DNA of 64,000 nt from Planctomycetota bacterium (GTDB lineage: Bacteria > Planctomycetota > Planctomycetia > JALXBF01), in the NCBI GenBank assembly GCA_026991575.1, contig JALXBF010000014.1, positions 11,467-75,466 on the forward strand, given 5' to 3'. The notes below the pieces were generated by a model. That model worked only from the letters and a program-made list of their open reading frames with translations, made no database searches and was not told the DNA's origin. Positions 29,688 through 60,765 of the stretch are shown here, piece by piece; positions within the stretch are counted from its first letter, which is position 1; each line of letters begins with the position of its first letter. The position numbers and the translations under genes are program-made.

Positions 29688-30944
29688 ATGAACCAGACGA
29701 TCGAGCTCCCGTGGGGCAAATGGACTCACGAAAGCTCCCTGAAGCTGGCGGTGCCGGTCGACTGGCACGTTGAGCTCATCGACCCGGACAGCTCGCCGGC
29801 CGGTCCGTGCATCGAGCGCGCGCTGGCCGAACCAGTCGGCTCACCACCGCTGCGCGAGCTTGCGCGCGGAGCGGAGCGCGTCTGTGTGGTCGTCGAAGAT
29901 CCGGCTCGACCGACCCGCCTCGGGCCGATCCTTACTGCCGTGATGCACGAACTGTCCCGGGCAGGAGTGCCCACCGGCTCTGTGACCGTGCTCGTTGCCA
30001 CAGGTGCACATCGATGGGAAACCGACCGGATCATCTTCGAGAAACTTGGGCTGCCGGCCAACCGAACCAACAGCCCCGCGGTTGTCATCCATTCCCCGCA
30101 GGACTGCGAAAACACCGATATCGTTCTGGACAAGACCGCCGTCCGTCTGAACGGCCACTTTCTCCACGCCGACCTGCGCATCCTGATCGGATCGGTGATC
30201 CCCCATCCGTTTGCCGCCTACAGCGGCGGAGCCAAGATCGTGCTGCCCGGCATCGCAGACCTGGACAGCACTACCCACATCCACAAGATGGCGCAGCTGG
30301 GCGTCGGAATCACCAGCGACCCGGACACGAATCGGTTCCGCGGCAAGATCGAGGCAGCTGTGCTACGGCTCGGCGGTCTTTTCTGCATCTGCTGCGTGCC
30401 AACGATGTCGGGAGAAGTAGTTGGCTGCTGGGCCGGCGACCTGGTTGCTGCTCATCGTGCCGCGGTGGCCGTTGCAGCGCGCCGTTCCATGAGGCCGTTG
30501 GCGGAACCGGCCGATGTGCTGATCTTGAACGCGTATCCGAAGGATGTGGATCTGGTGCAGAGTCGCGCCGCGCTGGCTTGTCTGCCGAGAGCGGTCCACT
30601 CCGTGATCCGGCCAGACGGGATCGTTGTGCTCGTGACGGCTGCACCGTTCCAGGCACGCGGCCATGAGCTGTTCTCGCCCGGTGGTCGCCTGCACGGTGA
30701 GCCGCGGCTGGAGCAGAGACTCGCCGGCCACGAGCTCTGGTTGCTCACGCCGGCAGCTGAGGAAGAAGTGCGTGCCGTCTTCGGGCCGGGCTGTCGGGTG
30801 TTCAAAACTCCAGGGTCGCTCATCGAAGGGCTAGCCGGCCGGCTGCGGAATCGTGCACGGGTTGCGGTCCTGCGCTCCGCCCCTCTGCTCCGCCTTACCA
30901 GCCAACGTGCAGCAGCGACAGGGAACGAGCGTCGAGCCGGGTAA
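29688..30944 (+). CDS. LarA-like (lactate racemase N-terminal domain, DUF2088) family protein
   Basis: 418 aa. N-terminal domain pattern (VVVEDPARPT..LVATGAHR) and overall length match the LarA/DUF2088 family. The specific substrate is unknown. Confidence 0.45.
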   Translation: MNQTIELPWGKWTHESSLKLAVPVDWHVELIDPDSSPAGPCIERALAEPVGSPPLRELARGAERVCVVVEDPARPTRLGPILTAVMHELSRAGVPTGSVTVLVATGAHRWETDRIIFEKLGLPANRTNSPAVVIHSPQDCENTDIVLDKTAVRLNGHFLHADLRILIGSVIPHPFAAYSGGAKIVLPGIADLDSTTHIHKMAQLGVGITSDPDTNRFRGKIEAAVLRLGGLFCICCVPTMSGEVVGCWAGDLVAAHRAAVAVAARRSMRPLAEPADVLILNAYPKDVDLVQSRAALACLPRAVHSVIRPDGIVVLVTAAPFQARGHELFSPGGRLHGEPRLEQRLAGHELWLLTPAAEEEVRAVFGPGCRVFKTPGSLIEGLAGRLRNRARVAVLRSAPLLRLTSQRAAATGNERRAG

Positions 30945-31863
30945 GGCCGGCATCGAGCGCCGCTTCGATCGCCTGTTCGAACTCCTTGCGTGTGATCGTC
31001 CGATTCAGCAGCTCGTAGCGGGGTGCGCGGCCTTCTGGCCGGTACTGGGCCATGATGTTGACGTAGGTGTTCGGCGAGATCTCCTCTGCCAGGAATTTCA
31101 TGATCTCGCGCGTGCCGGCCAGGTTGTTGGGCATGACCAGGTGGCGGACCAGCAGACCACGGCGCGCGATGCCATCCGGGCCGATCTGCAGATCCCCCAC
31201 CTGCCGGTGCATCTCCTTGATGGCACGTCGTGCCACTTCCGGATAGTCGGCCGCTTTCACGGCCCACTTGGCCACGTCGGGATCCCAGAACTTGAAATCC
31301 GGCATGTAGATGTCGACGACGCCGTCCATCAGCCGCAAGCTTTCCAGACAGTCGTAGGCGCTGGTGTTGTACACGATCGGGAGCTGCAGACCACGTTGTA
31401 CGGCGTAGTACACGCCTTCCAGCACCTGGGGCACGACGTGTTCCGGGGTGACGAAGTTGATGTTGTGGCAGCCGCGGTCTTGCAGCTCCAGCATCATGTC
31501 CGCCAGTCGATCTGGTGGCGTTTCCCGCCCGATGCCTTCCCAACTTATGTCGAAGTTCTGGCAGAAGACGCAGCGCAGGTTGCACCAGGAGAAAAAGATC
31601 GTGCCGGATCCATTCCAGCCGCGCAGGCAATCTTCCTCGCCGAAGTGCGGGAAGTAGCTGGCCACGCGTGCGTACCGCCCAGTGCGGCACACGGCCCGTC
31701 GGATGTCGTTGTGCAGTCGATCCGCGTGGCAGTTGCGCGGGCAGCAGGTGCAATCCTCCAGTCGCGCGACCGCCACCGCGACGCGCCGCTGCAGCTCACC
31801 GCTGCGATACAGCTCCAGGTAGGCCGGATACGTGCCGGGCTGCTTGCGCCGGGGTTCGCTCAT
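30895..31863 (-). CDS. radical SAM protein, PflX-like (COG1313, pyruvate-formate-lyase-activase homolog)
   Basis: CNLRCVFCQN CX3CX2C cluster motif plus the family-typical HNINFVTPEH and Cys-rich N-terminus (CTCCPRNCHADR). Confidence 0.7.
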   Translation of the reverse strand: MSEPRRKQPGTYPAYLELYRSGELQRRVAVAVARLEDCTCCPRNCHADRLHNDIRRAVCRTGRYARVASYFPHFGEEDCLRGWNGSGTIFFSWCNLRCVFCQNFDISWEGIGRETPPDRLADMMLELQDRGCHNINFVTPEHVVPQVLEGVYYAVQRGLQLPIVYNTSAYDCLESLRLMDGVVDIYMPDFKFWDPDVAKWAVKAADYPEVARRAIKEMHRQVGDLQIGPDGIARRGLLVRHLVMPNNLAGTREIMKFLAEEISPNTYVNIMAQYRPEGRAPRYELLNRTITRKEFEQAIEAALDAGLTRLDARSLSLLHVGW

Positions 31864-31889
31864 CGCCTGTGCCCCCCTGCGTCGTCAGC

Positions 31890-33161
31890 TCAGAACCGGG
31901 CCAATGCCGCGTGAAATACGCCGTGAGCATAGCGGTCCGGCCGAAGTGGCGAGAGGTCCAGTTCCGGAACCCCCCGCACAATCCACTCGGCCAACAGCAT
32001 TCCAGTCGCCGGCCCCTGGGTAAGCCCCAGCATGCCATGGCCGGCAGCAATCCAGAGGTTCTCTACCCATGGCACCGGCCCCACATACGGCAGGCCATCG
32101 GCGCTCATCGGTCGCATGTGGCACCAGACGTCGACCACTTCTGTACCGCTCAGGTCGAACGCGCGGCCCGCCGCCTGCTCGATCAACGCCACGCGACGCG
32201 TGTCGATTTTGCGGTTGAACCCGCTGAATTCCATCGTGCCCGCAAACCGACAACGTGTGCCCAGCGGTGTGACGAAGACCCGGTCCTTGACCAGCACGAC
32301 CGGTCGGTCGGGCAACCCGGGCGCCTCGCGGTAATCGACATGGTAGCCCTTGCCGGGCAAGATCGGGAGATCCAGGCCCACCGGCTGTACCAACTCCGGC
32401 GTCCATGCTCCGGTGGCCAACACGTAGTGGTCCGCCTGGAAGTCGCCCTGATCGGTCACCACCGCGCGCACCCGCTCGTGTGCCACCTCCACATGCCGGA
32501 CCGGCGTGCCGGTGCGGATGGTCACTCCCTGTTGTTCGGCGAGCTCTGCGACCGCCTGCACGAAGGCTGCCGGGTCGCAGTAGCCCGAGTCCGGGTAGTA
32601 GACCGCACCGCAGGCCGGCACCTGCAACTGAGGTAGCCACCGGCGCAGGGCTGAGCCGTCAAGCGTCTCGTAGCGAAAGCCGTAGCGGCTCAGAATCATC
32701 GCCTCATGCTTGGCTCCCGCCAGCGTTTCCTCATCGACGCAAACCTCCAGCCGGCCGTCAACCCGGAAGCCGAAGTCCTTCTGCCGCGCCAGCTCGTGGA
32801 ACAGTCGAAAGCTCAACCGTCCCAGCCGGCACAGTACCCCGGTCGCCTGTGCCATGTGTCGATGGGTGCAGGCGCGGGAAAACTGCATGAACCAGCTCAT
32901 GTGCTCGGCCAAGAACGACGGCTTGATGTACAGCGGGCTGTCGGGACGAAGCAGCCAGCGGAGGTTGCGCCACATGGTGCCCGGCTGGGGCAGCGGCAAA
33001 TGACCTGGCGTGATCTGGCCCGCATTGCCCTGAGAACAGCCCGCGCCGATTTCGCCTTGCTCCAGCAGCGTCACTTCGGCCCCCTCGCGGGCCAGGTAGT
33101 ACGCCGCGCTCACACCGATAGCGCCGCCGCCGATAACGATTACTCGTGGCTCTCGTGCCAT
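31890..33161 (-). CDS. FAD-dependent oxidoreductase (D-amino-acid dehydrogenase/DAO-like)
   Basis: GxGxxG FAD fold (VIVIGGGAIGVSAAYYLA..G..V.LLE) and the DadA-like C-terminal region. Confidence 0.75.
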   Translation of the reverse strand: MAREPRVIVIGGGAIGVSAAYYLAREGAEVTLLEQGEIGAGCSQGNAGQITPGHLPLPQPGTMWRNLRWLLRPDSPLYIKPSFLAEHMSWFMQFSRACTHRHMAQATGVLCRLGRLSFRLFHELARQKDFGFRVDGRLEVCVDEETLAGAKHEAMILSRYGFRYETLDGSALRRWLPQLQVPACGAVYYPDSGYCDPAAFVQAVAELAEQQGVTIRTGTPVRHVEVAHERVRAVVTDQGDFQADHYVLATGAWTPELVQPVGLDLPILPGKGYHVDYREAPGLPDRPVVLVKDRVFVTPLGTRCRFAGTMEFSGFNRKIDTRRVALIEQAAGRAFDLSGTEVVDVWCHMRPMSADGLPYVGPVPWVENLWIAAGHGMLGLTQGPATGMLLAEWIVRGVPELDLSPLRPDRYAHGVFHAALARF

Positions 33162-33230: not shown

Positions 33231-33857
33231 TCACAGTCCTTCGGGCGTCGGCTGACTGGGCGGCGGCACGTTTGGATCACCCTGGCGGCGGCGCTGCTCG
33301 TAACGCGGATCCTCCAGGCCGTAAGCCGACGCCACCCGGTTGAAGAACGCAAACAACGCCGTGACGTAGACAGCCTCCGCGATCTGTTCGTCGCTCCAGC
33401 CCGTATCGCGCAGCCCGGCAATGTCGTCTTGGGAAATGTCCCCTGGCCGTAGCGTCAGTTTTCGGACAAAGCTCATCAGCGCCGCCTCCGGACCCGCCGC
33501 GGCCTGGTCCGCACGGCCCTCCCGGCATGCTGCCACCTCCGCCGCATCGGCTCCCTGCAACTGCAGGAAGTACGCGTGGGCACCGGTTCAGTACTCGCAG
33601 CGATTCAACGCGGAAACATACGTGGCAATCGCCTCCTTGAGCCGCCGCGACAGATGGCCGTCCTGGAAATGGACCGGATAGGTAAGCGCGATCATGTGGC
33701 GTAGAAGCTCAGGCCGCATGCTCAACGCCTTCAGAATCTCAGGCATGCGCTCCCGGCCGGGATTGGCCCGCTTCCACGCGGCATAGATCTCCGCCACCTC
33801 GCCGTCAGCCTCGTCATCATCAACCCACTTGATCCACGGCATCGGCTCGCTCTCCAT
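33231..33857 (-). CDS. AhpD-like / peroxidase-related enzyme (carboxymuconolactone decarboxylase family), putative selenoprotein with an in-frame TGA (Sec) at 33588..33590
   Basis: Two adjacent same-frame ORFs (33588..33857 and 33231..33560) are separated only by a TGA. Read through, the motif is NRCEY-U-TGAH = CxxUxxxH, replacing the second Cys of the family's CxxCxxxH. Both halves match the family: N-terminal WIKWV..EA.GE..EIY, C-terminal ISQDDIAGLRDTGWSDEQIAEAV..ALFAFFNRVA. Confidence 0.6.
33551..33572 (-). promoter_or_regulatory. candidate SECIS-like stem-loop 19-36 nt downstream of the in-frame UGA
   Basis: The mRNA 5'-ACUUCCUGC-AGUU-GCAGGGAG-3' can form an ~8-bp stem (one G.U pair) with an AGUU apical loop, at the position where bacterial SECIS elements sit. 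Confidence 0.3.
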
Positions 33858-46539: not shown

Positions 46540-48450
46540 TCACAGCACGCGCGCCAGCCACCACGTCAGCCACACCAGGAACCCAACCAGCAGCCACGCA
46601 AACGCAAAACCACCGACGTCCAGCACCGTGAACCGCGGGATCTGCAGCCCGTAACGACTCACCAACAGCGGCTGCGGCGGCTCCGGATCTTCAGGCAACG
46701 CACACGGGCCCGGCACCCGCTCACCGGCACGCACCGGCGTCCGCAGCAGCAGGAAGAACCGCTCCAGCTTCTCAGTCGCCACCGGCCGCGTCAGCAGGCT
46801 CGTCACCAGCCCCGACACCAACCCGGCCGTCATGTACAGGAACATCTGCCACTTGTCGGCGATCTTCGTCGGACTCGTGAACATGAACTCCGGCAGGAAC
46901 CACCAGCGCTCCGGGAAGTAAACCAATCCAGCCCACACAGCGATCGTCGTGAAGGTCGAAACCCAGACGGCCGCCGGCGTCCAGCGTTTCCAGACCACGC
47001 CGACCCACCAGCTGATGCCGATGGCTGCCGGCCACTTCAGCACGACCTTCAGCGCATCGATCACGTCGCTGAAGGTCGCTTGCAGCGCCAGCGCCAGCAG
47101 CACGATGACCAGCCCTGCGATGCGTCCGACCCACAAGTAGTGCCTCTGCGAACGGCCTGGTACCAGGAATCGCCGGTAGATGTTCTCGGTGAACAGCCCG
47201 CTGGCGGTGATCATCTGAGCGTCGCAGGTGCTCATGACCGCCGCCAGTAACGAAGCCAGCAGCAGCCCGACCAGGCCCGGACCGATCGTCGGCAACAGCT
47301 CGTAGGCGGCTCGGCCAAAGAGCTCATCGGCAAACGCCCGATCGAACCGCTCATCGAACGGGACCTTTCCCGGCTCGGCACCGGGGACGTCCGGCGTCAG
47401 TCGCTGGCGGACGTCGTCCGGCAGGGGGGACAGTTCCGGATGCAGGTACCAGACAATGCATGCCAGCGCGGTAAAGGTCCACGCGATCGTGCAGAAGCGC
47501 TTCAGGAAGTTGCCGTAGCAGAAGCCGACACGACCGTCCAGCTCGGTCCGGCCCGACCCGCACACCCCCATGATGTGCGGCTGGACGACGATCCCGGCCA
47601 GGGCGGTAACCGAGAGCATGAACACGTAGAAGGCGTCGAGCGGTTCGCGGCCCAGCCGACGTGCGATTTCCCCGGAGGCGAACAGGTTGAACATGTCCTC
47701 CTTGCCGGGGATCTCGTACGTGTGCAGCGCGCCGAAGCCGCCGATCTGCTGGAACACGAATGGCAACAGGAGGAATGAGAAAACGATCGTCAGGATGCCC
47801 TGGATCAGATCGGTCAGAATGGCCGCCCCCAGGCCCCCGGCCATGCCGTAGAGCACAAACAGCACGGTCATGGCCAGGATCGCGAACTCATAGCCCTGCA
47901 TCGTGCGCCACCCGGTCACCACCCGCTGCTCGTGCGGGTCCCAGTGGAACTCGGGTACCTGGATGTTCAGCTCTTCGGCAAGACGCTGCAGCTGGCCTCC
48001 GGTGAGCGCGTTGACCATCTTGCCACTGCCGTACAGGCCGCTGGCGATGATGGTGATCGAGATCGTGATCCCGAAGATGGAGTAGAGCGTGGCGGTGGAC
48101 GTGTCGAAGCGGGCCTCGAAGAAGTCGCTGGTCGTGATCGCTCGCATTCTCCGGATGATCGGCGCGACCATCCAGTAGAAGGGGGTGGACCAGAGCCAGA
48201 GGAACTGCCACCAGATACCCGGCAGCCCGGCGCGCCACGTGCCGGCCACGACACTGATGGCCTGGTCGCTGCTGGTGCCGGCCCCGAAGGCGAAGAAGAT
48301 CAGGAACGCCTTGCCGAAGCGGCGCCCGCCCATGAAGTAATCGACCATGTTCTTCACCCGCCGGTGGCTCCAGACACCCAGCGCGGTGACGCCGATCAGG
48401 TAGGCCAGTAGCAGCAACCAATCAGCCCAGTGCAGACCAAGCCAGCTCAT
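46540..48450 (-). CDS. sodium:solute symporter family (SSF) transporter
   Basis: 636 aa, at least 13 TM helices. SSF-like N-terminal region (YFMGGRRFGK..FAFGAGTSS). Confidence 0.8.
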   Translation of the reverse strand: MSWLGLHWADWLLLLAYLIGVTALGVWSHRRVKNMVDYFMGGRRFGKAFLIFFAFGAGTSSDQAISVVAGTWRAGLPGIWWQFLWLWSTPFYWMVAPIIRRMRAITTSDFFEARFDTSTATLYSIFGITISITIIASGLYGSGKMVNALTGGQLQRLAEELNIQVPEFHWDPHEQRVVTGWRTMQGYEFAILAMTVLFVLYGMAGGLGAAILTDLIQGILTIVFSFLLLPFVFQQIGGFGALHTYEIPGKEDMFNLFASGEIARRLGREPLDAFYVFMLSVTALAGIVVQPHIMGVCGSGRTELDGRVGFCYGNFLKRFCTIAWTFTALACIVWYLHPELSPLPDDVRQRLTPDVPGAEPGKVPFDERFDRAFADELFGRAAYELLPTIGPGLVGLLLASLLAAVMSTCDAQMITASGLFTENIYRRFLVPGRSQRHYLWVGRIAGLVIVLLALALQATFSDVIDALKVVLKWPAAIGISWWVGVVWKRWTPAAVWVSTFTTIAVWAGLVYFPERWWFLPEFMFTSPTKIADKWQMFLYMTAGLVSGLVTSLLTRPVATEKLERFFLLLRTPVRAGERVPGPCALPEDPEPPQPLLVSRYGLQIPRFTVLDVGGFAFAWLLVGFLVWLTWWLARVL

Positions 48451-48481
48451 CGCGAAGCCTTTGCTCCCGGGGTGAAACTCC

Positions 48482-49441
48482 TCAACGTCGTTGTGCGTGC
48501 CACTCGCGCACGAAGCGGGCGTTCATTCCCACCTGGTCTTCAAACTCCTGGAACATGCCCACGATCATCGCGTCGGTCGGTTTGATCGCATCAAGCGTCT
48601 GGTGGAGTGTACGGCGGACGCTGTCGGGCGTGAGGCTGACGCGGCCAGCCGCCAGCACTTTGTAGACCAGGCAAGGCTTGCCGACGGCGCGCACGGTCTG
48701 GAGTGCTCGCTGCCGATCGCTTGGCAGGTAGACCTCACCAAGCGGCACCTCGCCGAGCCGCCTGCGCAGTTCGTCACGCGGCCGGGTCAGGTAGTAGAGC
48801 GCGACCATGTAGTAGTCCACATCCCAGTCTTCCTCTTCGGCCTGGGCAACAAGGGTCGGGTCATGGGCGCTGAGACCGACCAGCACGCCCGTATCGCGGA
48901 TCCGCTTTAGCAGGTCACGCAGTCGGGTCAGTTGCCCGCGGCGACGTAGCCGTTCGGCCAGCGCCCCGTGGGGCGCGATGCCGATCGGGCCCTCGGCCGC
49001 CGCCCGCTCGATGAGTTCCGGCCGCCGGTCCCAGTCCGGCTTGCCCAGCAAAAGCCAGTGGAACCGCAGCCCGGCTTCCCGGCAGCGACGGACGTCCTGC
49101 ACGGTGCGTTCCGCGTAGCTGTTTTGCCAGCAGTTGATGCCGCAGTGGACGGCATGCCGCACCAGTGCCAGCACGCGGTCCGGCGTATGGTACTCGCGCA
49201 GGTGTTGGCTGTAGAGCCGATTGAAGTGCGAGTAGCCGTAGATCGGGTTGCCGCCGAGGATCAGTCGGCTGATACGATGGGGTCCCAGAGCGATGGTCGG
49301 CAAGGAGTCGGGGGTTTGTCTGGAGTCGGCCAGAGTAGGCTGATGGACCGTTGCGCCGGCCAGGACGACAGCCGCGGATGATGCGGACGAGACGCCGGCT
49401 GCCAGGAACTTGCGTCGTGTCGGTCGTTGCCGGTTGCTCAT
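48482..49441 (-). CDS. hypothetical Tat-signal protein (possible TIM-barrel enzyme)
   Basis: N-terminal RRKFLAAGVSSASSAAV twin-arginine signal. No confident family assignment. Confidence 0.45.
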   Translation of the reverse strand: MSNRQRPTRRKFLAAGVSSASSAAVVLAGATVHQPTLADSRQTPDSLPTIALGPHRISRLILGGNPIYGYSHFNRLYSQHLREYHTPDRVLALVRHAVHCGINCWQNSYAERTVQDVRRCREAGLRFHWLLLGKPDWDRRPELIERAAAEGPIGIAPHGALAERLRRRGQLTRLRDLLKRIRDTGVLVGLSAHDPTLVAQAEEEDWDVDYYMVALYYLTRPRDELRRRLGEVPLGEVYLPSDRQRALQTVRAVGKPCLVYKVLAAGRVSLTPDSVRRTLHQTLDAIKPTDAMIVGMFQEFEDQVGMNARFVREWHAQRR

Positions 49442-49616
49442 GGGTTTGCCTCGGCGGTTCGAGGATTGTCCGTCGTACGGCCGATGGCTCCTGAGTCGTG
49501 GAGCGGCATGCGGCTGCCAACCGGCGTGCGCGACGCGGTCGGCAGCAGCAGCAGCACGCGTTTGTGCGCGAGTCGTTCGGGCGGGACGTTAACAGCATAG
49601 CGGAGGAGCTGGTGAA

Positions 49617-50723
49617 ATGGCAGGGCATGAGTTCCTGGCTCGAATCAGTCGGGGCAAGGTGGAGCTACGTGAGCTTACGGGGCAGGAGTCGGTGGTTGAG
49701 CTGATCGAACATGCGTTTCAGGCATACAACGCGGCTCGGCTCCGTGAACTGTGCCGCGTGTTCGTGGAGAAGATCTTGGAGCCGGATGTGTTGGTGGGGG
49801 TGGCCGTGAGCGGTGCGTTGACGCCGGGCGGTTACGGCACGAGCTGCTTGGTGCCGCTGATTCGGGCCGGCTTCATTGACTGGATCGTCAGTACGGGGGC
49901 GAACCTGTATCACGATGCTCATTTCGTGTTGGGACACGAGCTCCACCAGGTTGGTCCGTGCTGGGATGATGAGCGGTTGCGGCGGGAGCGGTTGATCCGG
50001 ATTTATGACATCGTGTTTCCGTATGAGACGTTGCTGGAGACGGATCGGTTGTTTCGCGAGTTGGCTCAGGCCAGTTGGTCGGGGGGCCGGGTATCGACGG
50101 CGGAGTTGCATTATGTGTTGGGCAAGGCATTGGCAGAACGGGAGCGGGCGGCGGGTCGGGAGCCCCGTTCGTTGTTGGCGGTAGCGGCGGAGTGTGAGGT
50201 GCCGGTGTACACGTCGAGTCCCGGGGACAGTTCGATCGGGATGAATCTGGCGGCGTTGCGGTTGGAGGGGGTGGAGGTGGTTTTGGATCCGTTGTTGGAT
50301 GTGAATGAGACGGCGGCGCTGGTCTATGGTGCGAAGAGTTCTGGGGGGAGGAGTGGGGTATTGATCCTTGGGGGTGGATCGCCGAAGAACTTCGTGTTGC
50401 AGACGGAGCCGCATATCCAGGAAGTGTTGGGGCTTGACGAGCGGGGCCATGATTACTTCTTGCAGATCACGGATGCTCGTCCGGACACGGGGGGTTTATC
50501 GGGTGCAACGCCGTCGGAGGCGATGACATGGGGGAAGGTGGATCCGGACCGGCTACCGGACGCGGTCACGTGCTACTGTGACACGACGATCGCCCTTCCG
50601 CTGTTAACCGCGTATGCACTGGCGAAACGGCCGCCCCGTCCCCACCGCCGCCTGTACAGCCAACGCCGCACGCTACTGCAGCGCCTCACCACCGCGTACG
50701 CGACGGCCAGGGTGCGTCGGTGA
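49617..50723 (+). CDS. deoxyhypusine synthase-like (DHS/homospermidine-synthase-like) family protein
   Basis: Conserved DHS-family blocks ([37 protein letters not shown]). Codon usage is unusual for this window (see findings). Confidence 0.7.
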
Positions 50724-50818
50724 CTGGCCCACCGCTCGACCGCGCAAAGAACTACCGCGCCGGGCGGAAGGAACCCGGCGCGGTAGCCAGATGCTGCACG
50801 GGTTGGTTGTTGGTCGTG

Positions 50819-52147
50819 CTACTGGCTCAGGGCATCCTCGTCCAGCGGCGTCTGGAACACGGGCCAGCACTCGTTCATGGCCTTGCTGCCGCCGGCGGGG
50901 GTCATCAGCTTGGCGAAGACCTCACCGTCGATGGAGGTGCTGATCTTCCGGGCCGAGCCATCGCACATGACGATGTTGATGACGCCCGGATGGTTTGAGA
51001 TCAGGTACGGCCAGCCTTCGTCAGCGAAGACCGCGCCGTTGATATTCTCGGGCCAGCCTGCTGGATTCTGGCGGGCGTCTTCGCGGTTGACGCGTCCGAA
51101 GTCTGCGCGCCTGCCCGAGCAGGTCAAGCCTGGTCGGTTGATGTTGAACGGCTTACCGGTCTGGCAATTGCCGCCCTCGGCGCAGAAGTCGTCGCTCATC
51201 CAGAAGCCGACGCGGAACGGGTCAGGCGCAGCCCACGTTCCTTCGTACAGGCCGCTGCCCGGGGCGCCTGGGTGGCTGCTATTCCACCACGCACCTGCCT
51301 GATCCACGTACCCGGCCTTGATGCGTTCGCTCAAGAGGATCGTCGTGGAGGCACCGTCGCGGATACTGGACGGGGTTCTCCGGAGGTCGAAGGGGGTGTT
51401 GCCACGGAGGGTGCCGATGCTGGTCAGGGTCATGTTCTTGGCGGCGATGAGATCCTGGACTGGGGTTGCCCCGGAGAGGTTGAGGGGGTTACCGCTGTTG
51501 TTCACGGGGCTGAACCACAGGGTGGTGAATCCGCCGTTGATCACGTACGTTAGGTTCCCCCGTCCTTGGGTGACGGTGTCATCGTTGGGGCAGACGAGGA
51601 CGTTGAGGTGGCGTTGGCCGAGGGAGTAGTGGCTTTCTTCGGGTCCTTGGGTCGTGAAGTTGCCGGAGCTATCGGGTTCGTCGAACAGAGCGTACCGCCA
51701 GCCTCGGCCCGAGCCTGAGTTGACTTTACTGGTTGCCTGCCATTGTTCGTAGAGGGCCTGTTGTTCGATGAAGGGCAGGATGTCGACGACCCAGCTATGC
51801 AGGGGGAACTGCCAGACGATTTCGTTGACTTTGGTGAGGTCTGGCCAGGTGGCGTTGAAGCCTGGGTGGGCTGCCAGCGGGAGGCCCTGGGTGCCGGTTT
51901 GGTTGAGGCCGTTGCCGGCGGGGTCGTCGTTTTCGGAGGCGAAGGTTCCGAGGTTCGGGTAGCGTCCTTTTTGGGTGACGAAGTTCTGGATGGCCAGGCC
52001 GAGCTGGCGCATGTTGCTCATGCATTGGGTTTGTCGTGCGGCCTCGCGGGCCATCTGGACCGCGGGCAGGATGAGCGATGCGAGGATTGCGATGATGGCG
52101 ATGACGACGAGGAGCTCGATGAGCGTGAATGCTCTACGTTTGGTCAT
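50819..52147 (-). CDS. DUF1559-family protein with a prepilin-type N-terminal cleavage/methylation domain (H-X9-DG family)
   Basis: N-terminal [29 protein letters not shown]-terminal [18 protein letters not shown] = H-X9-DG. This family is hugely expanded in Planctomycetes. Confidence 0.8.
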
Positions 52148-52599: not shown

Positions 52600-55500
52600 C
52601 TACTCGATTATCTCCGAGTAAATCACCACCTTGCGCAGAATCTGTAGGAGCTCTTCTCGGGTCTGTGGTGGTCCGGCCCACCCGTCAGCTCTGCTTCGAT
52701 CAACGACAAAGAACGCCCTGTGACGCACAGGCACTCCCGCATCGGTGCCAATTTCATCGCCCACCATTGGCAAGGCCTCGTCCGCCTCGTCGATCTGGCC
52801 GTCCAAGTCGTTATCGCGTCCATCGAATAATCTCGCGCCTCGAGAGAACAGCGGCACGTATACCACGTCGGTACCCCTGTCGACGGTGTCGTCACGGTTG
52901 TTGTCTAAACCGTCGCCGTCCAAAGAGAGTTCGTCTTCCTCGTCAACCTCTCCGTCACCGTCGTTGTCCACTCCATCCAAGCGCGCAGCTGGGAACCTTG
53001 GCTCTGCGACTTCGAAGAATCCAACCGTGATCCAAACGGCGAACACGCTACTTCTGGTCGTGATAACGTTCCCCAGCCGACGCAAAGGATCGAACAGGTG
53101 ATACGGGTAGCTGTACCGGTTGGGAATGGTGTTCGTGGCTCCGGGCACCAGCCCCTGCCGGTCACCGTTGCTCAGCCCGGGCGGAGCCACAGGTCTCCGG
53201 TCCAAGAGCAGTTGGCCAGCGGGACCGGCTAGTGCGAGAATGGTGTTCGCGATCGGGGCAGAAAAGCTTCGGATCGGCCCCTGCTGACGGAGCTGGTTTA
53301 GGGACATCCATAGTGCGGACTGCTCCGGCGAAGTTATCCCGGCGATTTGCCCGTTACCTGTCTGGACCAGCGCTGCCGGATGATTATTGAGCAACGCTAA
53401 AAGAACCTCCGGATCCGTTACCGTGTTGATGTTGACTTTTCCGGGCACACGCCAGCGACGGCGATCGCCCCCCCCGCCGTCGGAATCTCGGGAACCGTTC
53501 ATCGGGCTTGGGACTTCAACGAGCTCGAGTAAACGATGATAGGTAGGGGCGCGATGCGTTGGGGAGGGCTGTTGCAGGAAGTTCCACATATAGCCGTACA
53601 TGACGTGAGCCACGGGGCCATTTCCATCGAACCCCCAGAACGGCGCCGCGACCCCTGCACCCTGGTTCCCACCCGCGCCAGAGTCGAGCTGCTCCCACTT
53701 CCCGATTTCCACTAGCACATTTGCTGGGGTCGGTAAGGGCACAAAGAAGTCGATCTGTTGGGCACCCTGGTCCGCTTCACTAAGAGCTCGGAACACCGTT
53801 GTCAGCAGCGGCGGAGAAATCGCCGGTACAAGGAAGAGGTCAATTGGGCTGTAGACGGGATGATCGAAAAACACCAGTGGGGTTTCAACCTGGCGACGGT
53901 TCGCATTGGGTGCCCCGAGGGTATGCGGGCGCGCATTCTGCCCGGCGCCTCCCGGGTGCGGTTCGTGGCGGGCGGAGTACGTTTCCACTCGCTCCATGCT
54001 CACGATCCTGTTCTGGTTGTTCTGGCCAGCGTCAGCGAGCCATACCTTGGCACGAAGCACATCCACGGTGATGTATGGATTGGACTGCGCGTCGTGCGGG
54101 TGGCCCGGATGGGCTAGTCTCTGCAGGTAGACGTACATTTCGCGCGTGTTCGGATCCAGCTGCAGCTGCACGCTCTGCGGCAACAGGTCGAGCTCGTAGT
54201 CGACGCGGTCAATGGGAACAGCAGCGCCCTGGGGCGGCGGCCCGAGCACCAGGTACTGGCCAGGACGCAGTACCGGCGGGGGAGTAGGAGCGTTGTCGAA
54301 GGTCACGGTGTACGCCGCCTGTGCGACTTCCCCGGTGATCTCATCCGTGCTAGGTTCCGTGGCCAGGACCAACCGATATACGCCAACGCGCGGTTCGCCG
54401 GCGCGATTGGGCAGGTACTTGTCGAGGGCAATCTCCTGGTCCGAAGCGTTGAACAGCTCGATCCACAGACGGTATTGCGTGGTCTGATTCTGGTTGTTAC
54501 CTCCTTGGTTGCCAATGGATTCCTCGTAAGCCAGCGTCTCGGATATAACAACCTTGGGCTTCTCCACGCCCCACACCACCATCCGATGGACCCCCTCGTT
54601 AGTGGAAAGATTCCCATCCACGTCCCAGCCGTCCAAGGGCCACAGATCAAACTCAAAACCGGTCATAACATCGTCGGGGTCGACGAAGTCTACGAAGTTG
54701 ACCGCATACTGAGCCATTCTTCGCACAAAGTCTTTCGCCGGACCGTCGCTGGTGACGTTGCCCTTCGTCCAGGTCTGCAGCACGTCATCAGGTACGATTG
54801 AAAGCCAAAGCGCAAGATACAGGTCCCGCGCCATGGCCCGAGGGTCGTAGGACGGATCGGGACGGTTTGGGGCAGGTGAGATCGCTGTGCTGGCCCAATA
54901 GGGGAGCTGGTCCCTTGCAGCCGGAGGCATGATCAGCGGGCGATGGAGGTTGAGTCGGCGCCCGCTAGCCAGTTCCATCGGGATCTGGACGTCATCGCTG
55001 CCGGCGCTGCCCAGCTCGGCGGCTTCGTCTACTTGGCCGTTGGTATTGTCATCGTGGAGCGCACGTCCGGGAAGCAGGTCGGCACCTGGATGCCAGACTA
55101 AGCCGTAATCGCCCGGGTCCATTCCGCCGTTTGCCGCCTGCCATTGCTCGCCGATCGGGAGAATCCCGGTCAAGTGTGTTCGCGTGTGCGCCGGCGGTCG
55201 GTTCGCTCCCGCTCGGAATCGCAGTTGCGAAAGTCCAGCAGCACCATCGGAGTTAATTCCGATGGGTGGCAAGCTTGGAACAATGACGTCCCAGCTTTCG
55301 GTCGTCAGCATCCAACGTCGCCGAAGGGCAACCTCAGGAAGATATGGGTCGAAGAGGGAAGGAGCGAGTCGGCTCAGGCGAGCCCGATCCAACAGCCCCC
55401 GCGTCCCGATATCCCCGTAACGGTACAGCAATGCCAGCTCCGAAACTGTGAAGGGCCGGTCTGGACCGGCCAGGTCGGTCCGGTAGACGTTAACTTCGTT

Positions 55501-57153
55501 GGCCTCGTCAAGGTTCTCGTAGGTTTCCTCGCCCAAGCTCGCATCCCAGCCTAGCGCAACGCCGCCCGAGCCAAATCTGGGTAGTGTACTCGGCAGGGTA
55601 ACCCAAGGCCCGTACAACAGGCGGCCTCGCTGGTCAACCCACACGGCCCCGTCCCCGTCCAGGTCCATTGGGGTTCCCGCTGTGAACCAATGTGGCGTAA
55701 CTGTGGTCGCATCCTCCCATGTCAGTCCCGTTTGATTTGAGCCCGGCGAGTATACGAGGGCCCTATAGGGCCGCCACCGCATACCAAGCAGCAGATCGCC
55801 TGACTGGAAACGCAGCATAGCCGGATCGGCGACGTCTGCTGCTTGGGGATACGGGCTAGCACCGTAGCCGACGTCGTCATCCATCGACCCGACTCCTGGA
55901 GGATCAAAGTAGCCGCCCCACCGGCCCGGAACGACTTGCCCGGTCGTAGGATCGAAGAATCCCCGTATAATCCGTGCGTATTCGTAGAGCGAATACCCGC
56001 CTGTGGCGTAGACCTGACGGAAAAACAGCGGATCTGGCGAAAAGACGTTCTGAAGATTCACCTCCGTCGGTGAGGCTCCCTGTCCCGCCGACACTAGACC
56101 CGGAGCAGACACTCGCTGGAGTGCCTCAGCCAGCGTTGTCTGCCGTGCGGGGCTCGCGTCAGGCGGAACCAACAGATGGTCTAGGTGACTGTCGACTAGA
56201 TCTCGATGTTGCTGTCCCTGCCTCTCAGCAGGGTCATCGGCCCGTCCGGGAACGCTGTCCTCGTTGAGCTGCCCATGCACATTCAGGTTCAGTTTGCTGT
56301 CAAGGTCCACAATGAGCACTGCCACCAACGGTTTGTAGAGCTTGCCATCTTGGGTACGAAGGAACGGCAGCCCAGCGTCGATCCAGAAACTGTCTCGGAC
56401 CCCGTCAAGGTCATTGTCGACTTCCAAGACCGGCCCATTTGGGTAGGCACTGACTGGGAATAGGCCAGGGGGGTAAAGTACCCGAGCCAAGACATCTGCT
56501 CCTGATCCACTCAGAGCCGGCCGATGGTAGCTAGGTATCACCGTCGTGTTTAGCGTATTGGTCGTCCGGTCGACGCTACGTGTGATCAAGGCAAGGAACA
56601 TGTTGCTGAGGTCGGGAGCATCGTAGTCTTCGTCGTGTTGTGTGTCCTGGCTCGGGTGATCCGGAGGCAGCGTCGTGAACCGTACACCCGGGGTTCTTCC
56701 ATTTAGTACGTAGTTCACCCTCGCATCGCGGGCACCTAGCCCATTGAACGCTCTCTGATACCGCTCGAACCACTGAATCTTCCCGTCCGGAATGGGGCGG
56801 CCCCGCTCGTCGAACAGGTCGTTATCCGAGCCGTACATGTCGCGCAGGAGTGAGTGGCCGCGTAGCGCAGAAGTTGCGTTATCGGTATCGGCCACGATTT
56901 GACCGAGCACTGCTTCGAAGAGTTCAGCTGGCTCAAGATCGGCAATCGTCCGGCGCACTAGATTCCCGTATTGCTCTGAGGCCGATTGCTCGGCACCCGA
57001 GAGAGCAACGAAAGTGACTGCTAAGACGGAGACGATGGCCAGCAGTGCCAGAACGACGATCAGGGCAATACCCCGTCGTCGGTGCGCTGCCATGCTGCGA
57101 CCCCCGTGTCGACTCCGCAAGAGAAGACTATCTGCGGCGTCAGCACGGCTCAT
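52600..57153 (-). CDS. giant (1517 aa) GspK-like pseudopilin-cluster terminal protein with C-terminal Asp-rich Ca-binding-like repeats
   Basis: The N-terminal RRGIALIVVLALLAIVSVLAVTFVALSGAEQ resembles GspK/PulK N-termini. The C-terminus carries repeated DxDxDG-type loops (DGVDNDGDGEVDEED, DGDGLDNNRDD, DGRDNDLDGQIDEADE). Its start overlaps the upstream gene's stop by 4 bp. Confidence 0.5.
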   Translation of the reverse strand: MSRADAADSLLLRSRHGGRSMAAHRRRGIALIVVLALLAIVSVLAVTFVALSGAEQSASEQYGNLVRRTIADLEPAELFEAVLGQIVADTDNATSALRGHSLLRDMYGSDNDLFDERGRPIPDGKIQWFERYQRAFNGLGARDARVNYVLNGRTPGVRFTTLPPDHPSQDTQHDEDYDAPDLSNMFLALITRSVDRTTNTLNTTVIPSYHRPALSGSGADVLARVLYPPGLFPVSAYPNGPVLEVDNDLDGVRDSFWIDAGLPFLRTQDGKLYKPLVAVLIVDLDSKLNLNVHGQLNEDSVPGRADDPAERQGQQHRDLVDSHLDHLLVPPDASPARQTTLAEALQRVSAPGLVSAGQGASPTEVNLQNVFSPDPLFFRQVYATGGYSLYEYARIIRGFFDPTTGQVVPGRWGGYFDPPGVGSMDDDVGYGASPYPQAADVADPAMLRFQSGDLLLGMRWRPYRALVYSPGSNQTGLTWEDATTVTPHWFTAGTPMDLDGDGAVWVDQRGRLLYGPWVTLPSTLPRFGSGGVALGWDASLGEETYENLDEANEVNVYRTDLAGPDRPFTVSELALLYRYGDIGTRGLLDRARLSRLAPSLFDPYLPEVALRRRWMLTTESWDVIVPSLPPIGINSDGAAGLSQLRFRAGANRPPAHTRTHLTGILPIGEQWQAANGGMDPGDYGLVWHPGADLLPGRALHDDNTNGQVDEAAELGSAGSDDVQIPMELASGRRLNLHRPLIMPPAARDQLPYWASTAISPAPNRPDPSYDPRAMARDLYLALWLSIVPDDVLQTWTKGNVTSDGPAKDFVRRMAQYAVNFVDFVDPDDVMTGFEFDLWPLDGWDVDGNLSTNEGVHRMVVWGVEKPKVVISETLAYEESIGNQGGNNQNQTTQYRLWIELFNASDQEIALDKYLPNRAGEPRVGVYRLVLATEPSTDEITGEVAQAAYTVTFDNAPTPPPVLRPGQYLVLGPPPQGAAVPIDRVDYELDLLPQSVQLQLDPNTREMYVYLQRLAHPGHPHDAQSNPYITVDVLRAKVWLADAGQNNQNRIVSMERVETYSARHEPHPGGAGQNARPHTLGAPNANRRQVETPLVFFDHPVYSPIDLFLVPAISPPLLTTVFRALSEADQGAQQIDFFVPLPTPANVLVEIGKWEQLDSGAGGNQGAGVAAPFWGFDGNGPVAHVMYGYMWNFLQQPSPTHRAPTYHRLLELVEVPSPMNGSRDSDGGGGDRRRWRVPGKVNINTVTDPEVLLALLNNHPAALVQTGNGQIAGITSPEQSALWMSLNQLRQQGPIRSFSAPIANTILALAGPAGQLLLDRRPVAPPGLSNGDRQGLVPGATNTIPNRYSYPYHLFDPLRRLGNVITTRSSVFAVWITVGFFEVAEPRFPAARLDGVDNDGDGEVDEEDELSLDGDGLDNNRDDTVDRGTDVVYVPLFSRGARLFDGRDNDLDGQIDEADEALPMVGDEIGTDAGVPVRHRAFFVVDRSRADGWAGPPQTREELLQILRKVVIYSEIIE

Positions 57154-59228: not shown

Positions 59229-60751
59229 CGGCCACCCACAATGGTTTGATACGCCATGACCGCACGGGGTAACAACACCAGTGCCCCAAGACCACCGCGC
59301 CCTTGAGTGGCTGCCCAGGGGCCTGCCCAGAGAGCCTCCGCGTCGCCCTCGATCACCACCCATAGGACTGGCCCCAAGTTTGGATCGGAAACTCTCACCG
59401 TTTCAGCCACGCGGTACACATACGCGTGCCTCGGAGCGGCCGCCCTCGAGTAGTCCCTGGGCGGCTCCTGACGGCCACCAAGATTCACGTACGTAGCATC
59501 CAGAACATACGAACCCTTCGGTATACGGAGCCCCTCGTTGGTGGCACGCGGTTGGAACGCACCATGGTTCCCAATAGGAATGCGCAGGACGTTAGCCGGC
59601 GCGTCGTCACTGCCGGGCCAACCCAGCTCCGCCCAATCAATAAGTCCCCGATCAATACGCCCGCTCCTGACGCGCGGCTTAAACACAAAGTCTGTGATGC
59701 CGTTGCCGTCGTCATCGACGCCGGCTCTGCCTGGGGCGCCGTCCGGGCCGACTGGAAAGACAAACGGCACGGTGACGGGCGGCTCTTGGAAATCCCGCTC
59801 TCGAAAGGCCACGATGGTTACTCGGAATGGGCCCACCGGAATGTCCGTTTCAAGCCCAGGTAGAAGTCCGGTGAGCTGATCGGGAGGTTCCTGCTGCGGG
59901 GCGGGCCCGTACTCACCGTCACTACCGGGCAAGTGCCATTCCTCGCCTGCGTCGCTGTCGGAATCGTTGCTCACGCGGTCATAATAAGCCGGCGCGAACG
60001 TCTGGCTGGTTTTTTGAATGATCGCGAACCATGTGTATCGGAGCTTCCTCGGCAATGTTCCCGGGGCATACAGAGGCCCCGACGTCGGCCTGAGGAATGC
60101 CCTGCTGCCGTAGGCAACCAGTTCGGCAGGTTGCGAAAGTCTGGCCTGGAATGGCAGATAGGGATAGTTCGGGTGCCAGTACAACCGATCGGGAGCCGAG
60201 AACATGCTCCGTGCCAGCACTCGGGCGGCGGCTAAACCGCTTTGGGCCTGCGCCCTCTGAATGGCGTATCCGCGATACCTTGGAAGACCGTGGTAGAGTA
60301 CTTGTCCTTGCGAGTCCTGCAATCTGCCTAGCCTTGTTTCATCCGGACATGGATATTCCGGAAGGGTGGCTAACGTGCTGTTCTCGAGAATTCCCAGCGG
60401 ATCAATCACCACCGGAATTCCCGGCCGTGCTCCCTCCACTAAGACCCACTCCACCTGCTGAACCGGGTCTCGCACCGTTCCGTCCGGCTGCACGGGGTCC
60501 GCGATGTAAGCATTCGCAATCGCCCCCCAAGGCGGGGCATACAGCGGCCCGGCGATCGAGATCGCTCGGGCAGTTCTGGCAAGAACCGCGCCTCTCGTGT
60601 CGTCTGTGGCCCGGCCCAGGCGTGCGAGCCCTACCGGGAACAGGGCCGCTAGCGAGATCAGTCCAACCGCCAGCAAGAACATGGCGATCAGTATCTCTAT
60701 GAGGGACAAGCCCCCTCGCTTTGTCCGGCAACTAAACGTTCGACCTTCCAC
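59225..60751 (-). CDS. enlarged pseudopilin-like protein (508 aa) with a class-III signal peptide
   Basis: GTG start. KRGGLSLIEILIAMFLLAVGLISLAAL prepilin motif (canonical Gly at -1). Internal GRAGVDDDGNGITDF motif shared with the downstream paralog. Confidence 0.6.
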   Translation of the reverse strand: MEGRTFSCRTKRGGLSLIEILIAMFLLAVGLISLAALFPVGLARLGRATDDTRGAVLARTARAISIAGPLYAPPWGAIANAYIADPVQPDGTVRDPVQQVEWVLVEGARPGIPVVIDPLGILENSTLATLPEYPCPDETRLGRLQDSQGQVLYHGLPRYRGYAIQRAQAQSGLAAARVLARSMFSAPDRLYWHPNYPYLPFQARLSQPAELVAYGSRAFLRPTSGPLYAPGTLPRKLRYTWFAIIQKTSQTFAPAYYDRVSNDSDSDAGEEWHLPGSDGEYGPAPQQEPPDQLTGLLPGLETDIPVGPFRVTIVAFRERDFQEPPVTVPFVFPVGPDGAPGRAGVDDDGNGITDFVFKPRVRSGRIDRGLIDWAELGWPGSDDAPANVLRIPIGNHGAFQPRATNEGLRIPKGSYVLDATYVNLGGRQEPPRDYSRAAAPRHAYVYRVAETVRVSDPNLGPVLWVVIEGDAEALWAGPWAATQGRGGLGALVLLPRAVMAYQTIVGGR

Positions 60752-60765
60752 AGATTCCCGCCTCG

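Follow-up and report, generated by a model that had tools for sequence, protein, structure and literature searches.

An AhpD-like gene with an in-frame UGA and a downstream hairpin: a probable selenoprotein gene on a planctomycete-like scaffold

One reading frame interrupted by a single TGA

The gene described here lies on the minus strand between positions 33231 and 33857 of the window, by which we mean the whole 64 kb stretch of DNA that was analysed. One frame runs through this interval with a single internal stop, around which the translation reads ...SALNRCEY*TGAHAYFLQLQG... (Table 1), and translation through that stop yields 208 sense codons, not counting the UGA. A sequence-only reading of this DNA had taken the two open reading frames listed here for one frame broken solely by the TGA at 33590–33588, with an AhpD-like read-through product of ~208 aa. 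Single-frame translation bears out the first point, and translation together with a score above the cutoff of the TIGR01926 profile bears out the second. The downstream ORF, listed as 33231..33560, shares the frame, its listing having begun at the first start codon past the TGA, TTG 33560. The same reading had predicted that gene finders would split the gene in two, as the public (ENA) gene calls on the source scaffold indeed do, giving an 84-aa and an 81-aa gene; public calls for the orthologues L001–L003 are split likewise.

Table 1. Coordinates of the AhpD-like gene and its features in the window (residues in long-ORF numbering)
Feature	Position	Strand	Basis
AhpD-like (TIGR01926) selenoprotein CDS, from the probable start	33231..33842	-	single-frame translation, TIGR01926 and Pfam CMD matches, GC3
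Codon of Glu75, 12 residues ahead of the first Cys	33633..33635	-	K74-E75 invariant in alignment A1
Active-site motif C-E-Y-U-T-G-A-H (Cys87, Tyr89, Sec90, His94)	33576..33599	-	alignment A1
In-frame UGA, predicted selenocysteine	33588..33590	-	aligns with invariant Cys of CxxCxxxH; TGA kept in orthologues
Putative bacterial SECIS hairpin	33551..33570	-	MFE, consensus constraints, conservation, synonymous freezing, absence in Cys forms
Hairpin 5' arm, CUUCCUGC	33570-33563	-	
Hairpin apical loop, AGUU	33562-33559	-	
Hairpin 3' arm, GCAGGGAG	33558-33551	-	
Invariably paired 6-bp core of the stem	33553-33568	-	
Ordinary stop ending the gene, TGA	33233-33231	-	

Read from ATG 33857, the ORF reaches its greatest length of 208 residues, the UGA being residue 90 in this long-ORF numbering, which we use throughout. 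The real start is probably ATG 33842 (M6) rather than ATG 33857, because homologues begin MP.I.W and because the upstream ENA gene call is 84 aa long; from there the product would have 203 residues including one Sec, at position 85. Third-position GC content (GC3) of the minus-strand gene is 0.79 upstream of the TGA and 0.76 downstream. The sequence-only reading had also suggested looking for other genes with an in-frame TGA, and when the entire window was screened by GC3 on both strands for in-frame TGAs with coding-like flanks, this site and one antisense artefact at 51300 were all that emerged.

The sequence 3' of the UGA evolves like a coding region: over 118 codons downstream of it, the window and the locus L006 differ by 39 synonymous and 49 amino-acid changes. 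Public databases hold 18 proteins of 115–135 aa that begin at or just past the codon following the U position, and the contigs of such short proteins show an in-frame TGA at the split. In some other entries the UGA codon is rendered as W (P0011, P0013 and P0023) or as G (P0027).

Family membership and active site

The read-through product scores 107.8 bits against TIGR01926 ('peroxidase-related enzyme'; curated cutoff 81.8), its residues 7–181 matching profile positions 1–173 of 178. It also exceeds the cutoff of the AhpD core model TIGR00778 (39.7 versus 27.8) and matches Pfam CMD (E = 4.6e-13), so that these three models uphold the earlier assignment to the AhpD-like, peroxidase-related enzymes. 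The name of the TIGR01926 family is itself an annotation by homology, and in the selenoprotein literature the family goes by COG2128. By profile search the nearest solved structures are Cys-containing AhpD-core proteins (2prr, E = 4.9e-27; 2oyo; 6k40), whose CxxC aligns to the CxxU of the window protein. The closest structures as a set comprise 2PRR, 2OYO, 2PFX and 3C1L, all 'uncharacterized peroxidase-related proteins', together with 6K40 (Alkyl hydroperoxide reductase AhpD), with E values of 4.9e-27 to 1.3e-23. Like the window protein these are ~190–200 aa long, but all are Cys forms and none comes from Planctomycetota.

Alignment with full-length Cys-containing homologues (alignment A1) places the UGA where CxxCxxxH has its invariant second Cys, in agreement with the proposal that SALNRCEY-U-TGAH is this motif with Sec replacing the second Cys and with the expectation that the TGA would line up with a Cys in orthologues. 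Within A1, position 90 and His94 never vary and Cys87 hardly does.

The conserved residues of the window protein, E75, C87, U90 and H94, match the proton-relay residues described for AhpD of Mycobacterium tuberculosis and for PA0269 of Pseudomonas aeruginosa (residues and spacing from PMC3141380), so that the AhpD core, the CxxC(U)xxxH motif and the Glu 12 residues upstream are all present. By alignment and spacing, Glu75 is the counterpart of proton-relay Glu118 in the former and Glu36 in the latter. The five relay positions have identical spacing in the three proteins: Glu118/Cys130/His132/Cys133/His137 in M. tuberculosis AhpD, Glu36/Cys48/Tyr50/Cys51/His55 in PA0269 and Glu75/Cys87/Tyr89/Sec90/His94 here. 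All three belong to the all-helical CMD/AhpD superfamily; the two characterized proteins use Cys where the window protein is predicted to use Sec.

The locus does not resemble a canonical AhpC–AhpD system of the M. tuberculosis type: no ahpC or other peroxiredoxin gene was found among the neighbours of the AhpD-like gene, which encode a DAO-type flavoprotein, a radical SAM protein and a GNAT protein, and no canonical AhpD model figures in the list of NCBIfam matches with E ≤ 0.01. A search for a conserved operon, in which the window's DAO, radical SAM, GNAT, LarA-N-like and PMT-like genes were compared with all loci, gave one weak DAO match (in L055), and the orthologues therefore share no conserved gene context.

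Conservation of the TGA and of the downstream hairpin

For comparison we used the 80 best-matching genome loci, taken at species level and nearly all from Planctomycetota. The nearest representative in the genome collection shares no more than 65% identity with the window protein, and the source species is therefore absent from the genome representatives. The codon at the Sec position is TGA in 78 of the 80 loci and TGC (Cys) in the other two, with TAA or TAG in none; the cultured isolate Tundrisphaera lichenicola P12 (L071) is among the TGA loci, and TGA occupies the same codon also in L001 and L003. A domain boundary or an ordinary stop at this point in the orthologues, which the sequence-only reading had named as evidence against a selenoprotein, was not seen.

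That reading had further described a stem-loop, CCUGC-AGUU-GCAGG, extendable to 8 bp and lying ~19 nt downstream. The hairpin is present, with an 8-bp stem that includes two G–U pairs, and the distance was about right, since the stem starts 17 nt and the CCUGC core 20 nt after the UGA. It lies within the codons for F-L-Q-L-Q-G, has a minimum free energy (MFE) of −11.7 kcal/mol and carries a 4-nt loop whose second and third nucleotides are G and U; the UGA-to-loop spacing is 25 nt. Published bacterial SECIS elements follow a consensus of an apical loop of 3–9 nt with G in its first two positions, an upper stem of 4–16 bp, 16–37 nt between UGA and loop, and an MFE of ≤ −7.5 kcal/mol (PMC13188914). 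The hairpin falls within every one of these limits on loop, stem, G position, spacing and MFE, which answers the earlier call for a bacterial SECIS prediction at this site. No SECIS family in Rfam matched it, whether gathering thresholds were applied or E values of up to 10 were admitted.

Taken alone the hairpin is statistically ordinary. SECIS-like hairpins with at least 6 bp accompany 9.1% of the TGA trinucleotides in the window, and those with at least 8 bp accompany 2.8%, while the z-score of the 66-nt fold is only −1.1. As chance alone could produce such a hairpin, the significance of this one comes from the comparative data. The hairpin is found in the same register in 78/78 TGA loci and is missing from both TGC loci (L058 and L075), and its 6-bp core stem is paired in every TGA locus and in 70/70 distinct sequences, and unpaired in both TGC loci. 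Synonymous sites are frozen solely across the hairpin codons: third-codon-position entropy is 0–0.3 bits over UUC CUG CAG UUG CAG (codons 8–12), compared with 0.9–1.8 bits in the flanking codons (1.4–1.8 in all but one). The Cys forms contrast with this pattern: among 66 such proteins, with C at the Sec position, the stretch that reads FLQLQ in the Sec forms occurs as 40 different pentapeptides.

Because the hairpin hardly varies, true covariation is scarce. In L001 and L059 a C–G pair has changed to U–A through two synonymous substitutions, yet compensatory change on both sides is seen in only 2 of the 8 stem pairs, and the two outer pairs are unpaired in 27–44% of sequences. We therefore set covariation aside as proof of the hairpin, the element being too invariant and the compensatory pairs only two, and the argument for it rests on synonymous-site freezing together with the contrast between Sec and Cys forms.

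Decoding of the UGA

We consider it highly likely that the locus holds one gene for a ~22 kDa AhpD-like thiol/selenol oxidoreductase of the TIGR01926 family in which the second Cys of CxxCxxxH is selenocysteine. The observation made in the sequence-only reading is confirmed and its interpretation supported, each part that could be checked having held. By analogy with the established bacterial pathway, the hairpin, which follows the UGA inside the CDS with its loop beginning 25 nt after it, would recruit SelB·GTP·Sec-tRNA(Sec) to the ribosome; Sec would be inserted in the source organism, and translation would go on to the TGA that ends the gene. Homology to characterized AhpD proteins suggests that Sec90 would work with Cys87, Tyr89, His94 and Glu75, spaced like their proton-relay residues. 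The predicted selenolate nucleophile would then likely attack an oxidized partner, which may be a hydroperoxide or else a peroxiredoxin in its sulfenate or disulfide form, and the resulting intermediate would be resolved by Cys87 as a selenenylsulfide. The enzymatic activity and the partner named here are predictions of the same kind.

To look for the genes of the Sec pathway, Escherichia coli SelA, SelB and SelD (NC_000913.3) served as tblastn queries on the window together with 1.3 Mb of related loci. The sequence was also extended by ~10 kb on the left through HisG, whereas the protein at 62879–63793 had no recorded entry. Neither selA, selB, selC nor selD was found in the 64 kb window or in ~10 kb past its left end, and selA, selB, selD and tRNA-Sec were likewise not found in the 1.3 Mb of related loci; ARAGORN detected no tRNA-Sec in the window or in 60 loci. 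The tblastn searches returned solely weak matches to the SelB GTPase domain, in L071, L063 and L058. A gene of L071 that lies ~0.9 kb from the AhpD-like gene was considered as SelB and rejected, as it encodes TypA/BipA (870 bits). The genes selA, selB, selC and selD have been reported in four planctomycete genomes (PMC4807772).

A different account of the locus would have translation stop at the UGA to yield an N-terminal protein of 84–89 aa, with a second protein initiating just downstream and the two perhaps assembling non-covalently. The codon after the TGA is GTG, ATG or TTG in many orthologues, which is why gene finders call a second ORF there; in the window and in many other orthologues, however, the TGA is followed by one of the non-start codons ACC, ATT, CTG and CGG. 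The window's first start, TTG 33560, lies ten codons downstream, and its use would lose the invariant His94, while a split at the TGA would sever the CxxC-xxxH active site at the very residue responsible for catalysis. Nor does stop-codon usage favour two genes. Among the confident genes of the window, 25 of 39 end in TAA or TAG and only 14 of 39 in TGA, so that the exclusive presence of TGA at the split site (78/78) is not a matter of stop-codon bias. As the frozen hairpin is moreover confined to the TGA forms, we judge two genes or a split protein to be very unlikely.

Equally improbable, in our estimation, is that the UGA is read as a standard amino acid without selenium, whether as Trp or Gly under a variant code or as Cys or Trp by near-cognate suppression. 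The database entries that carry W or G at this position might be cited in its favour, some pipelines having evidently used code 4 or 25. Since 14 of the 39 confident genes, including the AhpD-like gene itself, end at TGA, this codon is a stop in the source organism and has not been reassigned, and the site discussed here is the single coding-like in-frame TGA in the 64 kb. SelB-dependent decoding, but not code reassignment, predicts a hairpin of SECIS consensus that is kept solely where the codon is TGA; the aligned residue in homologues, moreover, is Cys, which makes the standard Sec/Cys pair. Least credible of all is a dead or misread gene, in which a TGC or TGT Cys codon was struck by a nonsense change or by an assembly or sequencing error: it would accommodate the two fragments given by gene callers and a window lacking the Sec machinery, but is effectively refuted by the presence of the TGA in 78 of 80 species-level loci and, identically, in two independent assemblies of the source (L004 and L005), and by a downstream half that is under protein-level purifying selection, keeps the invariant motifs of the family and is free of frameshifts and stops in the orthologues.

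The archetypal bacterial SECIS element is that of E. coli fdhF, a hairpin within the coding sequence just 3' of the UGA that exposes a G–U in its apical loop, at nucleotides 23–24 in a loop of 6 nt. The window hairpin shares this placement and an apical G–U, and is presumably read by SelB. It differs in that its loop has 4 nt (AGUU), the G–U falls at nucleotides 30–31 counted from the U of the UGA, and no bulged U is evident.

AhpD-like proteins had been cited in the sequence-only reading as a known class of Sec-for-Cys replacements, and the literature agrees: 'AhpD-like protein, TIGR01926, CxxU' has been catalogued since the Sargasso Sea study of Zhang, Fomenko and Gladyshev (2005), 'AhpD-like 1' appears in the GOS survey of 2008, and the family is listed in a 2026 review of prokaryotic selenoproteomes. 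Members of this family (COG2128/TIGR01926) are found by the same HMM, have CxxU, in which Sec replaces the second Cys, contain one Sec per protein and carry a SECIS element just past the UGA. Nothing essential sets the window copy apart from them; it lies on a planctomycete-like metagenome scaffold and is split in gene calls. The window gene is therefore an unannotated new member of a catalogued selenoprotein family, an ordinary case and not a new kind. A second model, NF041238 (AhpD_rel_CFYUT, alkylhydroperoxidase-related (seleno)protein, the 'hypothetical protein 1' of the Sargasso Sea), also has an AhpD-type domain, with C-F-Y-U-T where the window protein has C-E-Y-U-T. This is a two-domain model of 357 positions, of which the window protein covers 151–333 only, in the C-terminal half, at 77 bits against a cutoff of 175; given the partial match and the score below the cutoff, the window protein is a single-domain relative and not a member.

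The main value of the finding is one of annotation, as split 'hypothetical' fragments on the source scaffold are restored to an intact redox enzyme. General knowledge of selenoproteins is unchanged by it. Recognition of a selenoprotein here implies that the source organism decodes Sec, and the 78 TGA loci in fixed register provide a clean SECIS consensus for Planctomycetota that could help to find further selenoprotein genes. A bolder idea, which we regard as possible though rather doubtful, is that the AhpD-like protein is an 'anchor' selenoprotein of Planctomycetota, almost always present in its Sec form and with a SECIS core, CCUGCAGUUGCAGG (14 nt), whose sequence, and not its structure alone, is frozen. 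Were this true, the protein could be a main reason why the Sec trait persists in Planctomycetota, and the core would be a defined sequence-specific motif for planctomycete SelB, unlike the E. coli paradigm. Three of the related loci carry a second selenoprotein gene nearby, which is deiodinase-like (FGSFT-U-GPFR).

Reading frame and active site of the AhpD-like gene

The AhpD-like gene of the window is very probably decoded with selenocysteine (Sec) at its in-frame TGA, which supports the interpretation reached by the sequence-only reading. The underlying observation, that ORFs 33588-33857 and 33231-33560 share a frame, is confirmed by translation, the second ORF being counted from the first start codon past the TGA: the gene is a single frame with one internal stop (MESEPMPWIKW...SALNRCEY*TGAHAYFLQLQG...PEGL*), and the minus-strand sequence around it reads TCC GCG TTG AAT CGC TGC GAG TAC TGA ACC GGT GCC CAC GCG TAC TTC CTG CAG TTG CAG GGA G. 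The true start is probably ATG 33842, since homologues begin MP.I.W and the public call of the upstream piece is 84 aa; residue numbers below count from ATG 33857. An in-frame TGA screen of the window, covering both strands from end to end, asked for flanks of 70 stop-free codons whose GC3 resembles that of genuine genes at the 65% GC of this DNA. The sole further hit, at 51300-51302 (+), was rejected as a selenoprotein candidate: it is an artefact on the strand opposite the DUF1559 gene, whose complementary frame imitates a high GC3.

Profile searches of the read-through product, run with Cys in place of the internal stop, bore out the proposed AhpD-like, peroxidase-related identity: TIGR01926 ('peroxidase-related enzyme') was matched over nearly its full length at 107.8 bits (curated cutoff 81.8), the AhpD core domain TIGR00778 at 39.7 bits (cutoff 27.8), and Pfam CMD was matched as well. 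The protein resembles NF041238 (AhpD_rel_CFYUT) but lies outside that family, because it scored 77 bits against 175 and covered the C-terminal half of the 357-position model only. Among solved structures the best profile match was 2prr (4.9e-27), followed by 2oyo, 6k40, 2pfx and 3c1l, which are Cys-containing 'uncharacterized peroxidase-related' AhpD-core proteins whose C-x-Y-C aligns with C-E-Y-U. In an alignment of the window protein with eleven full-length Cys homologues and two orthologues of the Sec type, the TGA fell on a Cys that is invariant in the homologues. The first Cys is almost fully conserved, and there is no variation at the His at +4 or at the Glu 12 residues ahead of the first Cys. 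Glu75, Cys87, Tyr89, Sec90 and His94 are spaced as the five proton-relay residues of M. tuberculosis AhpD (Glu118, Cys130, His132, Cys133, His137) and of PA0269 (Glu36, Cys48, Tyr50, Cys51, His55; PMC3141380).

Beyond the observed frame, family, Cys/Sec pairing and conservation of UGA and hairpin, the established bacterial pathway would have the hairpin bind SelB·GTP·Sec-tRNA(Sec) when the ribosome arrives at the UGA, so that Sec would be inserted and translation would run on to TGA 33233-33231. By analogy with AhpD biochemistry, the Sec90 selenolate, activated by the Glu75/His94 relay, may attack an oxidized partner; a selenenylsulfide with Cys87 would form next and then be reduced again. In M. 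tuberculosis AhpD the second Cys is reportedly the attacking nucleophile.

That CxxU AhpD-like proteins are a known Sec class is borne out by the literature. 'AhpD-like protein' (COG2128, CXXU motif) was a new selenoprotein family of 27 sequences from the Sargasso Sea in 2005 (PMC1088965), and 'AhpD-like 1' (COG2128, CxxU) has 299 Sec and 902 Cys homologues in GOS, its selenoprotein count being the fourth-largest among the GOS table rows listed (PMC2398784). The window gene is therefore an unannotated member of an already known selenoprotein family; it adds a member, not a family.

The codon at the Sec position in relatives

A protein search returned ∼69 full-length Cys forms (roughly 200 aa, 40-54% identity) and 18 proteins of 115-135 aa that start [M/V]GSH..FLQLQG one codon past the U position. 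On the contigs of these short proteins an 84-aa CMD gene ends in TGA and the second piece follows directly, in frame, as in the related loci L001 and L003 (NQCPY-TGA-GTG GGT TCA CAC). In four database proteins of the family (P0011, P0013, P0023 and P0027) the Sec position is occupied by Trp (CPYW..., CLYW...) or Gly (CRYG...); they are evidently mistranslated selenoproteins, some metagenome pipelines having applied genetic code 4 or 25 to the UGA.

A genome scan with one genome per species, whose representatives do not include the source species, found 304 relatives; the best 80 loci were taken further. These are almost all Planctomycetota MAGs (Pirellulaceae, Planctomycetaceae, Isosphaeraceae), with one isolate, Tundrisphaera lichenicola P12. 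The codon at the Sec position in the best 80 of 304 is TGA in 78 and TGC in two, and TAA or TAG in none, which is not the ordinary stop or domain boundary that the sequence-only reading had named as counting against Sec. Stop-codon bias would be another source of an exclusive TGA at the split site. The window's 39 confident genes end in TAG (17), TGA (14) or TAA (8), and the AhpD-like gene itself ends in TGA; TGA is therefore a normal stop in the source organism, and such usage rules out bias as the cause. A pseudogene or assembly error is excluded by three findings: the codon changes against L006, the closest genome relative among the best 80 (65% identity), with 30 identical codons, 39 synonymous and 49 amino-acid differences in the 118 codons after the UGA (27, 33 and 24 in the 84 before it); the intact C-terminal motif ALFAFFNRVA, invariant in the family; and the TGA, which two independent source assemblies share unchanged. 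They also indicate that the half beyond the UGA is translated.

The hairpin downstream of the UGA

The stem-loop proposed downstream of the UGA is present: counting the U of UGA as nt 1, nt 21-28 (CUUCCUGC) form a stem with nt 33-40 (GCAGGGAG), capped by an AGUU loop, with a free energy of -11.7 kcal/mol. In the published bacterial SECIS model (PMC13188914) the upper stem measures 4-16 bp, the loop 3-9 nt and the distance from UGA to loop 16-37 nt; the MFE is at most -7.5 kcal/mol, and a G stands within the first two loop positions, with G or U as the usual next base. The hairpin agrees with all four published criteria (4-nt loop, G at position 2 then U, 8 bp, 25 nt). Taken alone, it is weak evidence, since SECIS-like hairpins occur at 9.1% of window TGA sites for at least 6 bp and 2.8% for at least 8 bp, and the local fold z is -1.1.

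The comparative evidence argues strongly for a SECIS element. In a gap-free alignment of 70 distinct 51-nt segments the 6-bp core is paired in every one, as it is in the remaining 10 TGA loci; the two TGC loci among the best 80 of 304 lack the hairpin. Third-codon-position entropy is 0-0.3 bits in codons 8-12 (UUC CUG CAG UUG CAG) and 0.9-1.8 bits in the codons on either side (1.4-1.8 with one exception), and the second Leu codon of the hairpin is always UUG, which supplies the loop U. The loop is GGUC in L012, L018, L063, L071 and L082 and AGGU in L069, with the stem and G at loop position 2 kept, and in L001 and L059 two synonymous substitutions have turned a C-G pair into U-A, a compensatory change. 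Sec forms encode FLQLQ here in 62 of 68 cases (FLRSQ in five, FLQVQ in one), whereas 66 Cys-form proteins have 40 different pentapeptides at this position. Formal covariation is sparse, with both partners changed in two pairs and pairing often missing in the two outermost, so the case rests on synonymous-site conservation and the Sec/Cys contrast. How widely Planctomycetota have fixed the Sec form, together with a SECIS frozen in sequence, at 78 of the best 80 of 304 loci, may be mildly new; the value lies in an annotation correction and a clean SECIS consensus for the phylum. One database protein, P0015, is the only Cys form retaining the FLQLQG peptide of Sec forms (CPYCRDSHAYFLQLQG) and may be a recent Sec-to-Cys conversion with a SECIS remnant.

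Sec machinery and genomic surroundings

Within the window, Pfam scans of all roughly 39 genes found no SelA, SelB or SelD domains, tblastn with the E. coli proteins found none of the three, and ARAGORN found no tRNA, nor any tRNA-Sec in 60 loci; ∼10 kb past the left end showed no selA, selB, selC or selD. In the related loci tblastn with these proteins gave only weak GTPase-domain hits to SelB. The one in T. lichenicola (L071:11462-13291, 25% identity) proved to be TypA/BipA, not SelB, whose gene sits downstream of the AhpD-like one there, ∼0.9 kb away; L063 and L058 gave similar weak hits. Indirect support for Sec machinery comes from a published report of selA, selB, selC and selD in four planctomycetes, Isosphaera pallida and Gemmata obscuriglobus among them (PMC4807772, Table S8), and from a second in-frame-TGA gene that three related loci carry some 0.8-1.4 kb away from the AhpD-like one. 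Its product is deiodinase-like and thioredoxin-fold (VVL[VI]FGSFT-U-GPFRSQ), with a hairpin beginning 12 nt after the UGA (UCCCA-G(G/U)(C/U)-UGGGA, G-first loop). The window has no copy; this family is likewise a known selenoprotein family.

Coordinates of the AhpD-like gene, its neighbours and other features
Feature	Position	Strand	Remark
AhpD-like gene	33231-33857	-	in-frame TGA 33590-33588
DAO-type FAD oxidoreductase	31890-33161	-	downstream, same strand as AhpD-like gene
Radical SAM protein	30895-31863	-	downstream, same strand as AhpD-like gene
LarA-N-terminal-domain protein	29688-30944	+	cluster beside AhpD-like gene
GNAT acetyltransferase			upstream of AhpD-like gene, divergent
Deoxyhypusine-synthase-like gene	49617-50723	+
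DUF1559/N-methyl gene	50819-52147	-
Second-gene TGA (related loci)	L016:3208; L023:11522; L038:1684	+	deiodinase-like, PF00837 98 bits

The AhpD-like gene stands alone, its neighbours not being linked to orthologues elsewhere, and no peroxiredoxin gene lies near it. The adjoining three-gene cluster at 29688-33161 (LarA-N, radical SAM, DAO-type) is not linked to it in other genomes. Overall, the window has a planctomycete look: it encodes DUF1559/N-methyl and DUF7133-HEAT-cytochrome c proteins. The composition profile has a local spike in the 4-kb bin 48001-52000 only (GC skew +0.14, AT skew -0.11), which holds the deoxyhypusine-synthase-like and DUF1559/N-methyl genes. At 52600-63793 (-) six large same-strand ORFs (1517, 737, 508, 333, 375 and 304 aa) have no Pfam matches save for one ORF with a pseudopilin-type N-terminal methylation motif, and their GC is lower, at 0.60-0.62 against 0.65 elsewhere. 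They may represent a surface or secretion cluster that is lineage-specific or was gained horizontally.
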